From the NCBI GenBank assembly GCA_965267575.1, contig OZ254086.1, positions 768,001-832,000 on the forward strand: 64,000 bases of DNA. The letters run 5' to 3'. This DNA comes from Calditrichales bacterium (GTDB lineage: Bacteria > Calditrichota > Calditrichia > Calditrichales > J004). The notes beneath the pieces are model-generated. The model worked only from the letters and a program-made list of their open reading frames with translations. It ran no database searches and had not been told where the DNA came from. A program made the translations under genes and the position numbers. Of this stretch, positions 34,864 to 38,277 are shown piece by piece (within the stretch, counting starts at the first letter, position 1; the number at the start of each line of letters is the position of its first letter).

Positions 34864-35859
34864 TCAGGCCTGTACATTTTCAGAATTAATTTTAAGATAC
34901 GACGCAGCCAACACCTGCCGCACAATACTCTCCGGCGTACTCTGAACCGGCAGCAGCTGCCAGGAATGACGCAAGCCCACGGTCAGCGGCCCGATGGATG
35001 TATACCCGGCCAGATGCTCCGTCATTTTCTGGGCAATGTTGGCGGATTCTAAAGTTGGAAAAATAAACACATTAGCATTGCCTTTCAAGCGCGCAGCCGG
35101 GGCTTTTTTTTGGGCGACGCTTTGCAGCAGGGCCGTATCAAACTGCAATTCACCGTCGGCCAGCAGGCCGGGGTGATTGTTTTGCAGCCAGCGAGCGGCC
35201 TGTTGCACTTTTTCAACACGGGGATGCTGCGCGCTGCCTTTGCTGGAAAAACTCAGTAACGCCACACGTGGGTCTTCATCCGTAATTTGGCGAAAAGCTT
35301 TGGCCGTGTTGATGGCGATGTGTCCCAGCGCCGGAGGATCGGGATTGACATTCAGGCTGCAGTCACCAAAAGCGTAACTGCGTTGCCCGTCGGGTGAAAT
35401 CATCAGGTAGAAAGCACTGGCCAGCCCGGAAGCAGGATCCACCTCCAACTGCTTCAAGCCATAACGAAACACTTTTTGTGGCTTCGACTGATTCCCGCCT
35501 AAAACGACATCGCAATGCCCGTGGCGCAGGCTGGCGGCGGCCACATTCCAGGGATCGCTGAAAAGACGCTCTGCATCCTGGCGGGTAGCGCCTTTATGGC
35601 GGTTTTCACGCAGGTACTGCTCGATGTAAGGCTGTACGTGGCGCGGTTGCCTGGAGTGAATCACTTTGAGCCCGCGTGTATTTATGCCCAGATCGCGTAA
35701 TTCATAGGGACCGCCCAGAAGTTCCGGCTGTGCCAGACCTTCATCGGCAAGCAAGCGCGCGGCCTGTAAAACACGGATATCTGCTGCTTCGGCAAACAAC
35801 ACGCGCTGCGGCTTCTGGCGGCAGGTGTTCTCGATACGGTTCCAGTAGGCGGGCAGCAC
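34864..35859 (-). CDS. Phosphotransacetylase (Pta/EutD) homolog with a degenerate active-site motif
   Basis: GDCSLNVNP, LSFSSKGSA, DGELQFD and ANVFIFP are present, but the canonical DLSRG motif is replaced by LLPVQ. Confidence 0.8.
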   Translation of the reverse strand: MLPAYWNRIENTCRQKPQRVLFAEAADIRVLQAARLLADEGLAQPELLGGPYELRDLGINTRGLKVIHSRQPRHVQPYIEQYLRENRHKGATRQDAERLFSDPWNVAAASLRHGHCDVVLGGNQSKPQKVFRYGLKQLEVDPASGLASAFYLMISPDGQRSYAFGDCSLNVNPDPPALGHIAINTAKAFRQITDEDPRVALLSFSSKGSAQHPRVEKVQQAARWLQNNHPGLLADGELQFDTALLQSVAQKKAPAARLKGNANVFIFPTLESANIAQKMTEHLAGYTSIGPLTVGLRHSWQLLPVQSTPESIVRQVLAASYLKINSENVQA

Positions 35860-35862
35860 AGT

Positions 35863-36135
35863 CTATTCGCGCTCCTTCAAAATATCGCGCACCGCTTTTT
35901 CTACTTTGACCCGGCTCATGTTGGGACTCTTTAAACGGACCAATACCTCATCGACGATCCTTTGCATGTCACGGTAGCCCACTTTTTCCGTGGCCGATTC
36001 CAGCAGCTCCACACCCAGTTGTTCAGCGCGCTCACGGGCCTGCGGCGTCACGATCTGCCCGGCAGCAACCTCCAGCTTCAGTTGATGCGCGGCATGCACC
36101 TGCTCAATCGTTTCCGCTGATATCAGTTTTTTCAT
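35863..36135 (-). CDS. Small BMC-associated protein resembling the EutQ N-terminal domain, plus an encapsulation-peptide-like helix
   Basis: MKKLISAETIEQVHA...IVTPQARERAEQLG resembles the enterobacterial EutQ N-terminus (MKKLITANDI...IITPEARE.A..LG). The C-terminal helix is DMQRIVDEVLVRL. There is no cupin domain. Confidence 0.65.
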   Translation of the reverse strand: MKKLISAETIEQVHAAHQLKLEVAAGQIVTPQARERAEQLGVELLESATEKVGYRDMQRIVDEVLVRLKSPNMSRVKVEKAVRDILKERE

Positions 36136-36151
36136 GTCATTTCCCTTTTTC

Positions 36152-36336
36152 AACCACAGGGCACACAGAGTACGTCACAGAGGGCACGGAGAAAGAAAAA
36201 TTATTTCAAAATAAAAACCTGTGTTTGCTCTGTATCCCCCGTGATTTCTCTGCAAAGCCGCGATTCTATTCTTTAAAAATTTTTATCTCTTTTTATCTCA
36301 GTGTCCTCTGTGCAGCACTCTGAGTCCTCTGCGGTT
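36152..36336. repeat. Inverted-repeat pair with 41-nt CACAGAG-based arms, downstream of the GxxExxY gene
   Basis: Arm 36152-36192 (AACCACAGGGCACACAGAGTACGTCACAGAGGGCACGGAGA) matches the reverse complement of 36296-36336 (AACCGCAGAGGACTCAGAGTGCTGCACAGAGGACACTGAGA) at 32/41 positions. Confidence 0.9.
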
Positions 36337-36351
36337 TCCGACGGTTTGCCC

Positions 36352-36735
36352 CTACAGGATGATCCGCTTAATGCCGCTTTTCAATCGTTCCACTTTAAAA
36401 TTTATTAATAATCCGATCTTACACCCTGTGGCTCTAAGATATGTTAAAATCTGCGCATCATAAACCGGATGCAGATTTTCAACACATTTTAGTTCAAGCA
36501 CTACGGAATTCTCAACCAAAAAATCCAGGCGATGTTCTCCTACCATGTGTCCTTTGTAACTCAAAGGAATAGGCATTTGTTGTTTATATCCAATTTGTTG
36601 AATCTCGAATTCGCGGGCAAGAGCGTTCTCATAAACACTCTCCAAAAGCCCCGGACCCAAAGTCGAGTGCACTTCTATGGCACATCCGATAATTCTGTGA
36701 GTCAATTCTTTTAAAGGATATTTTTCTTCTGCCAT
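36352..36735 (-). CDS. GxxExxY protein (PD-(D/E)XK nuclease superfamily)
   Basis: Likely start MAEEKY at 36735. Motifs IIGCAIEVHSTLGPGLLESVYE (GxxExxY), RLDFLVE..VVLELK, AQILTYL and GLLINF. Confidence 0.92.
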   Translation of the reverse strand: MAEEKYPLKELTHRIIGCAIEVHSTLGPGLLESVYENALAREFEIQQIGYKQQMPIPLSYKGHMVGEHRLDFLVENSVVLELKCVENLHPVYDAQILTYLRATGCKIGLLINFKVERLKSGIKRIIL

Positions 36736-36744
36736 CTTTTTTTT

Positions 36745-36867
36745 AGCCACAGAGGGCGCAGAGTACAGCACAGAGAACACAGAGCAAATACAAAGAAAAG
36801 TTTATTTAAAAAAAAGAAACCTATTTCTCTGTGGCCTCTGTGAAAATCCTCTGTGCCCTCTGTGGTT
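36745..36867. repeat. Inverted-repeat pair with 41-42 nt CACAGAG-based arms, upstream of the GxxExxY gene
   Basis: Arm 36745-36785 (AGCCACAGAGGGCGCAGAGTACAGCACAGAGAACACAGAGC) matches the reverse complement of 36826-36867 (AACCACAGAGGGCACAGAGGATTTTCACAGAGGCCACAGAGA). The spacer is 40 nt and A-rich. Confidence 0.9.
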
Positions 36868-36872
36868 TTCCG

Positions 36873-37640
36873 TTACCTCAGCCCCAGACGAGACATTATC
36901 TCCAGAGCCAGTTCGGCATACTCTTTGGCGCCGCTGGCCGACGGGTTTTTATGGATGATCGGTTTTTGTGCGTCGAAGGCCTCTACCAGTTTGCTGTTCA
37001 CACCAATGGCCGTTTCGAACACATCCTTGCCAAAGCGCTCACGCAGGTGGTTCAACACATCGTGCGCCACTCGGGTACGCCGGTCGAATTGCGTGCCGAA
37101 GTAGCCCAGGATCTTGAGCCGTGGATTTAACCGCCGCTGTACCTTGGCGACAGACTTCAGCGTCAGCTCCAACCCGGTTAAGGCGAGGTACTGCGTCTGC
37201 ACGGGTATCAGCACAAACTGCGCGATGGCCAGCGCGTTGAGTCCCAGCGAGCCCATATTGGGCGGGCTGTCAAATAAAATGATATCATAGCCCCGCGGCA
37301 AATTGTTTTTAGTCAGGAAAAATTCGCTCTCCTGTTCTTGCAGCATCTCATCGTAAAAATCGCTCAACGAAGGTTCAGACGGCAGGCAAAACAGGTTATC
37401 GTAACGGGTGGGATAAATGAATTCACCCAACGGTTTTGTTTTGGTTACGATGAAATCGCATAGTGTGGCAATGCCGCTTTCGGCATGGTTAAAACCCAGG
37501 TGAATGGATGCGCTCGCCGCGGGATCGAGATCAATCACCAGCGTTTTATAGCCGGCCTGGGCAAAGCAGGCCGCCAGGTTTACGACGCTGGTGGTTTTGC
37601 CGACGCCGCCTTTGTTGTTTAGCACCACGACGGTTTTCAT
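36873..37640 (-). CDS. ParA/Soj family ATPase
   Basis: Deviant Walker A KGGVGKTT; IDLDP; Walker B ILFDSPP; LIPVQ; TQFDRRT; C-terminal GAKEYAELA. Confidence 0.93.
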   Translation of the reverse strand: MKTVVVLNNKGGVGKTTSVVNLAACFAQAGYKTLVIDLDPAASASIHLGFNHAESGIATLCDFIVTKTKPLGEFIYPTRYDNLFCLPSEPSLSDFYDEMLQEQESEFFLTKNNLPRGYDIILFDSPPNMGSLGLNALAIAQFVLIPVQTQYLALTGLELTLKSVAKVQRRLNPRLKILGYFGTQFDRRTRVAHDVLNHLRERFGKDVFETAIGVNSKLVEAFDAQKPIIHKNPSASGAKEYAELALEIMSRLGLR

Positions 37641-37641
37641 A

Positions 37642-38277
37642 TCAACCTCGCTGCGGTAACGGGTAATAAAGCTGCTTCACTTTTTCCACGCGCCCCTCGT
37701 CAATCAACCCTTTAAGCACAACACGCGCCTTTGCCGAATCGAGATTCGTTTCAGTAGCGATTTCTTCCAGTGTCGCGCCATCTTTGCCTGCCCCGAGAAA
37801 CGCCATGATCGCGTCAGCGTTTTCAGTGGGTGTCTCTTGTTTGGGCGGCATTACCGGCGGACCTTTTATGGCTTTTTTCTTTTTGGGCGATCGTTTTTTG
37901 GGTGGACTTTTTTTTGCGGGTTTTGCGGGAGGCGCCGTCTTCCGCGCGGGTGTTACAGGTGGCTTCTTCTCGGTGCCGTCTACCGGGCCTGTCGATACGG
38001 GACCAAGTGTCCCGGCCACAAGCCCCTCCGTATCATCAAATGGTCGCGGGATTACATGTGAGGTCACAAACTGGCCCAGTCTTTCGGCGGCGGCGCGTCC
38101 GGCATCCACGGCGGCCTGAACCGCGCCCAGCTCACCTTCCACGACCACGGTCACCAAACCGGCGCCAACTTCCCGGCGCTGCACGATATGCACTTTGGCC
38201 GCCTTCAACATCGCGTCCGCTGCTTCCAGCGATCCGGTGAGACCCAGCGTTTCCACAAAACCGTAAGATAAAGCCAT
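37642..38277 (-). CDS. BMC-H shell domain fused to a Lys/Pro-rich linker and a C-terminal winged helix (EutK-like architecture)
   Basis: Shell domain GFVETLG...AADAMLKAAKV...GELGAVQAAVDAG...HVIPRP; linker KKPPVTPARKTAPPAKPAKKSPPKKRSPKKKK; wHTH GATLEEIATETNLDSAKARVVLKGLIDEGRVEK. Confidence 0.88.
   Translation of the reverse strand: MALSYGFVETLGLTGSLEAADAMLKAAKVHIVQRREVGAGLVTVVVEGELGAVQAAVDAGRAAAERLGQFVTSHVIPRPFDDTEGLVAGTLGPVSTGPVDGTEKKPPVTPARKTAPPAKPAKKSPPKKRSPKKKKAIKGPPVMPPKQETPTENADAIMAFLGAGKDGATLEEIATETNLDSAKARVVLKGLIDEGRVEKVKQLYYPLPQRG

Follow-up and report, generated by a model that had tools for sequence, protein, structure and literature searches.

Our data identify, in a bacterial microcompartment (BMC) operon of a Calditrichales bacterium, an inserted block of 737 bp in which the gene for a GxxExxY protein, a predicted nuclease of the PD-(D/E)XK fold, stands between phased arrays of the seven-nucleotide word CACAGAG. 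The block occupies positions 36136..36872, on the minus strand, of the DNA analyzed, a window of 64,000 nucleotides that spans 768,001-832,000 of contig OZ254086.1 (GCA_965267575.1; a genome coordinate minus 768000 gives the window coordinate). It has been inserted into the short operon spacer between parA, which encodes a ParA-type ATPase, and a gene for a protein like the N terminus of EutQ (eutQ-N). With respect to its nature, we regard it as highly probable that this is a heptamer-armed cassette belonging to a dispersed family. The overall explanation that suits our data best, and to which we give slightly better than an even chance, is that the block is the gene-bearing copy of a selfish cassette of this type, the nuclease of which would act on its own arrays.

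Within the block, the gene (36352..36735, minus strand, 127 amino acids [aa]; PF13366, 7e-43; TIGR04256, 2e-44) is set between two hairpins, each composed of two arms. The arms follow the formula AAC-H-N2-H-N5/6-H-N2-H, where H is CACAGAG, with 0 to 3 mismatches per arm in total. Hairpin B, on the parA side, has its outer arm at 36823..36868 (minus strand; arm profile E=2.8e-10), in which four CACAGAG units are separated by gg, gatttt, and gc and the AACC end is turned toward the parA stop codon, 4 nt away; its inner arm (36742..36789, plus strand; E=8.1e-11) ends about 10 nt short of the cassette ATG. About 14 nt past the cassette stop codon lies the inner arm of hairpin A (36292..36337, minus strand; E=1.9e-10), with the units CGCAGAG, CTCAGAG, CACAGAG, and CACTGAG separated by ga, tgctg, and ga. 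The outer arm of hairpin A (36149..36198, plus strand; E=1.2e-09) abuts the ribosome site of the EutQ-N-like gene, and the distance from this arm to the ATG of that gene, about 16 nt, leaves room only for the ribosome site itself, AAAGGGA. A repeat finder delimited hairpin A as 36152-36198 / 36290-36336, i.e., 47 nt with 77% complementarity and 91 nt between the two halves.

The arm positions of the original prediction, which had been made from the letters of the window and had placed two inverted pairs astride a 127-aa GxxExxY gene, were thus borne out by both the repeat finder and the arm profile. Its further description of the block also agrees with what we found: the block is more AT-rich than its neighbors (41% GC versus 54-57%), it fills nearly all of the space between parA and the next ribosome-binding site, with its outer arms 4 nt from the parA stop codon and about 16 nt from the next ATG, and the cassette ATG, preceded by the letters GGCTAAAAAAAAG-ATG, lacks a Shine-Dalgarno sequence. 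Only in part could we follow the proposal of an additional degenerate arm at about 36218-36253, in the loop of hairpin A. Complementarity is present, as 36220-36243 is 79% complementary to 36769-36792 according to the repeat finder, but as an arm this stretch (36218..36253, no strand assigned) is weak and lies below the threshold of the arm profile.

That the block is an insertion follows from the same junction in related genomes. All genes of the operon are on the minus strand and are ordered, along the direction of transcription, as the gene for a BMC-H protein with a C-terminal helix-turn-helix (HTH) domain (37642-38277), parA (36873-37640, with its stop codon at 36873-36875), the block, the gene for the 90-aa EutQ-N-like protein (35863-36135, ATG at 36135), and pta, encoding a phosphotransacylase (34864-35859). 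Thirty relatives were searched with the DNA of the stretch, and the 11 best loci, which represent genera of the same family and order, were examined. The order BMC-H/HTH, parA, eutQ-N, pta is kept in all 11, none of which has a GxxExxY gene at the junction, and the parA stop codon is separated from the eutQ-N ATG by 5 to 25 nt in 10 of them and by about 130 nt in the remaining one. The original prediction had called for a search for just such an empty site. Since the relatives are distant, with parA DNA that is 64-70% identical, the empty site is established at the level of synteny and not of alleles. In the relative with the longer spacer (L019:1309-1455, genome G015), the roughly 130 nt of the junction contain another palindrome, rich in GC, CCCCACCC.../...GGGGAGGGG; the parA|eutQ-N junction has thus been colonized independently. 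Among the public sequencing runs listed, the stretch occurs only in four runs of one sample (X1-X4), probably the one from which this DNA comes, and none of them is recorded as RNA. One of them, X1, carries it in a single near-identical contig, and three runs with the same species label contain only a short conserved piece of parA and no bridging contig.

The arms of the block recur elsewhere in the genome. Although CACAGAG is under-represented genome-wide (105+96 occurrences found versus about 288 expected per strand), its occurrences are clustered, and a four-unit pattern allowing up to 3 mismatches gave 17 matches in the genome, compared with 0 for the reversed control. The clustering of a rare word, together with this control, argues for more than chance. 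Using an arm profile built from 16 arms, we obtained 30 matches, of which about 28 are convincing; these lie at 12 loci, with 8 hairpin doublets among them, and most of the loci are gene-less hairpins or lone arms. The dispersed repeat family expected by the original prediction therefore exists, gene-less copies included. Eight of the 12 loci have an arm whose AACC end either falls no more than 6 nt past the stop codon of the upstream open reading frame (ORF) or overlaps it. This placement is explicable by selection, since it spares the ribosome site of the next gene in a tight spacer, and does not in itself prove targeting. A 434-aa ORF ends within a lone CACAGAG arm, at genome positions 519343-519388 (L001), from which it takes its last codons and its stop codon. 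At three places (genome positions ~1255510-1255580, 1255670-1255740, and 1485240-1485320), a further repeat module, which consists of AATATTGGTAG ... and a short GTCCC-loop-GGGAC hairpin, was seen in or beside the loops of CACAGAG elements; the recurrence of this module indicates that the intergenic repeats of this genome are mosaics.

Our data also support a specific tie between GxxExxY genes and phased word arrays in general. The genome contains six PF13366 genes, and the five others are 34-44% identical to the window copy. Phased arrays with a word of their own are found at four of these five copies (three of the four loci), namely, a copy with CATGAAG x3 arms (genome positions 2261037-2261414), a tandem pair with CGCAAAG x3 arms (4493381/4493963), and a copy with TGATT-type x4 arms, which form a pair of hairpins to either side of the gene (1404490). 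Both CATGAAG and TGATT-type arms are also present at gene-less loci of this genome. A strict lag-9 scan of the genome catches the CATGAAG arms, misses the 9/12/9-spaced CACAGAG arms, and takes in coding repeats as well. The fifth copy (1018918-1019376; L014:2919-3377) is armless, reads F-I-R where the other copies have the catalytic E-x-K, and sits on a long branch of the protein tree. With respect to the surroundings of these copies, the CGCAAAG-armed cassette proved to be a tandem duplicate at 4493381-4494346 (L012:2882-3847), with a period of 582 nt and 91% identity over 300 nt, and one of the five Y1_Tnp (PF01797) genes, at 2255819-2256163, has the CATGAAG-armed copy as a neighbor at a distance of some 5 kb.

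The tie was also seen in a sample from across the phylum, for which we used genomes of at least 90% completeness. PF13366 is encoded in 51 of 56 such genomes, with 1-16 copies each, some of which contain stop codons while many sit at contig ends. We read the flanks of the 29 best phylum loci by eye, and at every one of them (29/29) at least one phased array adjoins the ORF. The words found are CACAGAG/CACGGAG, CACGAAG, CACAAAG, CACAGAA, CACGAAT, CACGGAT, ACAGGAT, CAGGATT, CGCAAAG, and ACGAAA. An automatic caller that counts words having a similar neighbor 8-10 nt away, which replaced a plain count of flanking words that was swamped by AT-rich ones, returned the eye-read word as its top word at 25 of the 29 loci and disagreed at L029, L030, L031, and L053. 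Inverted alignment of the upstream with the downstream flank reached a z value of at least 5 at 11 of the 29 loci, a measure that is blind to loci with a hairpin on each side. Two layouts can be distinguished: in one, an arm on the plus strand and an arm on the minus strand directly abut the two ends of the ORF, and in the other, seen in the window and at L040, L037, L032, and L033, the ORF has a hairpin on either side. The co-location of GxxExxY genes with repeats that the original prediction proposed was hence found at 4/5 other copies in the genome and 29/29 in the phylum sample. On the three points named there as able to refute it, we found that empty sites exist, that repeats are enriched next to GxxExxY genes of other genomes, and that the gene is not a fixed, repeat-free member of this BMC operon.

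The repeat word follows the clade of the GxxExxY protein. A maximum-likelihood tree was built from 43 such proteins, of which this genome contributed 6, the phylum 29, and other phyla 8. The word labels require 12 changes on it, whereas 1000 label shuffles averaged 23.2 changes and never fell below 19, and several well-supported clades have one word each (CACGGAT, ACAGGAT, CGCAAAG, and a CACGAAT/ACGAAA group). Labels were set by eye with the help of the caller, with the CACGGAG and ACACAGA variants pooled as CACAGAG; the label of L053 is uncertain, and L014 was left unlabeled. With 12 changes against at least 19 in the shuffled sets, the anticipated covariation of GxxExxY clade and flanking repeat is evident.

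The arrays themselves indicate what is being conserved. In 27 arms of this genome, the heptamers carry 0.8-1.6 bits of information per position and the 2-nt spacers only 0.2 bits. We also determined the complementarity between arms in hairpins from this genome (8) and, for the rest, from other phyla, 29 of 32 of which could be parsed. Heptamer positions are complementary in 90% of cases (734/812), the central spacers in 60% (56/93), and the 2-nt spacers in 30% (32/106), where 25% is expected by chance. The apparent "stem" of such a hairpin thus consists of four 7-bp blocks parted by unpaired 2x2 loops, and the difference between heptamers and 2-nt spacers argues for selection on the word and not on a continuous stem. 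Between word families, moreover, all units of both arms change together, as would be expected if the word is read but not if pairing alone is needed.

The window protein matches PF13366 (146.1 bits; cut-off, 22) and TIGR04256 (150.5 bits; cut-off, 35) over its full length. An alignment of 35 sequences shows no variation at G29, E32, Y35, or D71, while E81 and K83 are retained in at least 90% of the sequences and in every copy but the armless one; in the window copy, the catalytic motif reads RLDFLV...ELK. An AlphaFold2 model based on 35 sequences has a pLDDT of 94.3 and a predicted alpha-alpha-beta-beta-beta-alpha-beta core. The Foldseek matches of this model in the PDB are weak, with a best E value of 1.5e-3 and a TM score of about 0.5, and all of them are PD-(D/E)XK nucleases, among them lambda exonuclease, Cas4, the nuclease domains of AddB/AdnAB, and Hjc. 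A sequence search retrieved no solved structure of a relative, and the PADLOC defense models did not match the GxxExxY protein at an E value of 0.01 or below. PDDEXK_3, the Pfam name under which the family goes, is listed as a domain of unknown function with multiple transfers in one study (PMC3424549), and another study mentions the domain beside a reverse transcriptase and says nothing more of it (PMC8934634).

Among species-representative genomes at large, the exact pattern CCACAGAG-N2-CACAGAG-N4-7-CACAGAG-N2-CACAGAG was found in at least 120 stretches. The phyla among the matches listed include Verrucomicrobiota, Desulfobacterota, Planctomycetota, Spirochaetota, Bacteroidota, Acidobacteriota, and others, and further taxa among them are Gemmatimonadota, Chloroflexota, Alphaproteobacteria, and Patescibacteria. 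Eighty of these loci, taken for detailed analysis, carry 146 arms, which are arranged as 27 hairpins, 82 single or other arms, and 5 pairs in which a plus-strand arm is followed by a minus-strand arm. Such pairs were sought at distances of 200-2500 nt; all five enclose 376-561 nt, and all five contain a GxxExxY gene. PDDEXK_3 is, furthermore, the sole Pfam family that recurs, five times, among the 62 small ORFs beside the arms of these 80 loci.

How such a cassette might spread can be outlined from these patterns. We tentatively propose, giving the idea somewhat less than an even chance, that the nuclease reads and mobilizes its own arms at the DNA level. In this scenario, the GxxExxY protein would bind its own word as an array of DNA sites, with one subunit per heptamer. 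The nuclease would then cut at or near the arrays, and the arms, with or without the gene, would be copied or exchanged between sites. The resulting relation of a nuclease and its satellites would be like that of the REP-associated tyrosine transposases (RAYTs) and REPINs, the hairpin-forming doublets of repetitive extragenic palindromes (REPs), though run by an unrelated enzyme. A link to catalysis is offered by the armless GxxExxY copy, the sole one in this genome, which is also the copy without the E-x-K motif.

Several observations weigh against a nuclease acting on its own arms. Linked DNA is inherited together, so that the agreement between word and protein clade shows linkage of gene and arms and not recognition. 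Only 6 of the 80 detailed loci have a GxxExxY gene no farther than 300 nt from an exact arm. Among five other arm-rich genomes, all of them assemblies without a completeness figure, a CACAGAG-armed GxxExxY gene is present in two and just a CACAGAC- or CACGGAC-armed one in another two, and the last gave no match to PF13366. Closer to the window, the strict four-unit arm pattern occurs in 0 of 38 other genomes of the order, and the CACAGAG arms of this genome are just 75-90% alike, which argues against a recent burst. No target-site duplication was detected at 10 arm pairs, where the only shared flank is the AAC/GTT of the repeat itself. The family is absent from 50,697 phage records searched by tblastn and present in only 8 of 72,556 plasmids, all of them typed as non-mobilizable and most several hundred kilobases in size; hence, no vehicle for transfer between phyla is evident. 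A search of viral contigs with the window protein likewise returned no relative. Finally, all four genes of this genome that encode four-helix-bundle proteins of the PF05635 family (genome positions 663384, 665747, 4661404, and 1528549) are likewise framed by inverted, phased arrays that have their own words (GACTTCA-type, GTGTTA, GAATTGG, and GATC-type). As these proteins do not have a nuclease fold and yet have similar arms, a nuclease is not needed for the architecture.

The GTGTTA-type arrays constitute the commonest phased-heptamer family of the genome, with at least 28 loci. The more general idea that each abundant family of phased heptamers includes a gene-bearing copy in the genome had to be rejected. 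Of 52 words that occur at 4 or more loci each, only 3 have an exact doublet no farther than 250 nt from a GxxExxY or four-helix-bundle gene.

An RNA-level explanation would liken the block to the intervening sequences (IVSs) of rRNA. The arms would be stems of the transcript, cut by RNase III or a similar host enzyme; cutting would release or stabilize the cassette mRNA and insulate it from the host message, and the protein would play no role in spread. We think this unlikely. Both hairpins are strongly predicted as RNA (hairpin B, -58.9 kcal/mol, z -7.6; hairpin A, -67.7 kcal/mol, z -6.5; both relative to shuffles), and a study on Coxiella describes a 23S IVS with an RNase III-cut 28-bp stem and three tandem heptamers (PMC4990558). 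Consensus scans found neither a sigma-70-like promoter before the GxxExxY ORF nor an intrinsic terminator on the sense strand of the block. Without such sites the gene must ride on the operon transcript, and the cassette is probably transcribed together with the microcompartment operon. A stem alone, however, requires neither that the word be conserved among units nor that it change in concert between families, and pairing of the 2-nt spacers is at chance level (30%). In 11 hairpins oriented by flanking ORFs, admittedly a small sample, G-U and A-C mismatches on the sense strand stand at 22:22, with no sign of RNA-level selection, and an Rfam search gave two chance-level matches only (E value of about 0.5), so that no Rfam family can be assigned. 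An element of this kind would, moreover, account for the tolerance of the insertion but not for its spread.

Another possibility is that the arms are portable exchange sites, operating in an integron-like manner or through RecA-dependent homology into gene-less "landing pad" hairpins, with GxxExxY as the commonest cargo. In favor of this, CACAGAG arms of this genome also bracket an MNT + HepT-like pair and a 193-aa ORF by an ApeA gene, those of a locus in another phylum, L060, delimit an OLD-family nuclease and a YefM/YoeB pair, and the four-helix-bundle genes have the same design. Free exchange of cargo would nonetheless blur the correspondence between word and GxxExxY clade, and PDDEXK_3 is the only recurrent family among the 62 small ORFs, with GxxExxY in 5/5 tight enclosures. 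The arms also stand singly and not in arrays beside an integrase (an integron integrase was not searched for), and we consider this model improbable. Far less probable still is that these are ordinary REP/REPIN-type hairpins moved by a Y1 (RAYT/IS200-like) transposase of the genome, with the GxxExxY gene present by chance or hitchhiking. The genome does have five PF01797 genes, and most arm loci are gene-less, but none of the five is near CACAGAG arms, while GxxExxY genes have arms of their own at 4/5 other copies in this genome, at 29/29 phylum copies, and at copies in other phyla. Arms that are specific to the gene bring this last explanation close to refutation.

The loci at which CACAGAG arms enclose other genes deserve description in their own right. 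At genome positions 1110367-1111448 (L002:2868-3949), the arms bracket a nucleotidyltransferase gene (PF01909, PADLOC PDC-S09) and a short HepT-like ORF, which together form the MNT/HepT-like pair; upstream, a secretion-tail gene is followed, 5 nt past its stop codon, by a full hairpin, and on the downstream side there are two single arms. Conservation of this locus was not observed in 30 relatives, in which only fragments of the repeat and of the secretion-tail gene were matched. At 3585157-3585982 (L009:3158-3983), two arms of the same orientation bracket the 193-aa ORF, which has no Pfam or PADLOC match and directly precedes an ApeA-type HEPN defense gene (PF18862/PF18739). L060, from a metagenome-assembled genome of an uncultured bacterium (L060:2287-7265), has four CACAGAG arms in the order (+)(+)...(-)(-), which delimit an uncharacterized 110-aa ORF, the OLD-family nuclease (AAA_15 + TOPRIM), and the YefM/YoeB pair; the arrangement resembles a series of accessory cassettes with arms in between.

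Considering the GxxExxY and four-helix-bundle genes together, a broader model can be formulated, which we put forward with more doubt than conviction. Both GxxExxY proteins and the four-helix-bundle "IVS proteins" may be sequence-specific readers of phased 7-nt words that, with their arrays, make up a large class of mobile cassettes that spans phyla and is without a known transposase. Such cassettes would leave gene-less hairpin satellites behind, would include the ORF-bearing rRNA IVSs, and would now and then carry toxin-antitoxin or defense genes. Irrespective of this model, the tie between GxxExxY and its word provides the first testable substrate for the large PF13366 family, which is listed as having unknown function. 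If this tie is functional, it would represent a kind of mobile element that needs no HUH, DDE, or serine/tyrosine recombinase, and it would explain a class of intergenic hairpins in many phyla and link this class to rRNA intervening sequences. In practical terms, these cassettes split operons and break metagenome assemblies, with many copies at contig ends.

Among described systems, the closest is the ORF-bearing 23S rRNA IVS of Coxiella burnetii and Leptospira, in which the ORF encodes S23p, a four-helix bundle (PF05635). According to the study already cited, the Coxiella element is 428 nt long, and RNase III cuts its terminal stem, which measures 28 bp. It contains an S23p ORF that has a poor ribosome site and is preceded by three tandem GACAGAT heptamers upstream of the ATG, and its origin and function are there called unclear by the authors (PMC4990558). 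Like a 23S IVS, the block is a selfish insert of roughly 0.4-0.7 kb with stem-forming terminal inverted repeats, and it contains one small ORF that has a poor or absent ribosome site and is directly preceded by tandem heptamers. Four-helix-bundle genes flanked by phased inverted arms are, in this genome, also found away from rRNA. The 23S IVS, however, sits in a helix of 23S rRNA (25 or 45), whereas the block occupies the spacer of an mRNA operon between two protein genes. The ORF of the former is S23p/PF05635, while that of the block matches PF13366 only, with its PD-(D/E)XK fold. Instead of one enclosing stem, the block has a hairpin on either side of the gene, in addition to the dispersed gene-less copies in the genome. 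Cutting by RNase III is a feature of the Coxiella IVS, and the block is known here from its sequence.

A REP is a single imperfect palindrome with a conserved tetranucleotide, and RAYTs are Y1/HUH tyrosine transposases of the IS200/IS605 kind. With the REPIN/RAYT system, to which the original prediction had likened the block, it shares a gene-bearing copy flanked by its own repeat (here, two doublets), gene-less intergenic inverted doublets in the same genome, and the coexistence in one genome of several repeat families, each with a gene of its own. It is nevertheless not a RAYT system: its enzyme is not of the Y1/HUH type but belongs to the PD-(D/E)XK nucleases (PF13366), and none of the five PF01797 (Y1_Tnp) genes of the genome is located at any of the 12 CACAGAG arm loci. 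Each arm consists of four phased heptamers in place of the single imperfect palindrome of a REP, and, unlike in REPIN/RAYT systems, three of the five other arm-rich genomes either lack the cognate gene or have one whose word differs by a single letter.

Miniature inverted-repeat transposable elements and small insertion sequences likewise have inverted repeats of some 45 bp at their ends, occur as short derivatives without a gene, and occupy intergenic sites. In contrast to them, the block shows no target-site duplication that we could find and no DDE or other known transposase, and its repeats are phased arrays of a 7-nt word. PD-(D/E)XK nucleases of mobile elements include TnsA of Tn7, homing endonucleases of this fold, and Hjc-type resolvases. 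The GxxExxY protein has the catalytic fold in common with them, and it differs in that the structural matches are weak (E value of 1.5e-3 or higher) and in that its 127 aa leave it without an extra DNA-binding domain.

In conclusion, the heptamer-armed GxxExxY cassette is a widespread selfish cassette of which we found no description in print; the literature searched was that on GxxExxY/PDDEXK_3, IVS proteins, and heptamer repeats. The block in the microcompartment operon works like a REPIN/RAYT pair and resembles an ORF-bearing 23S IVS, and it is a member of neither system.

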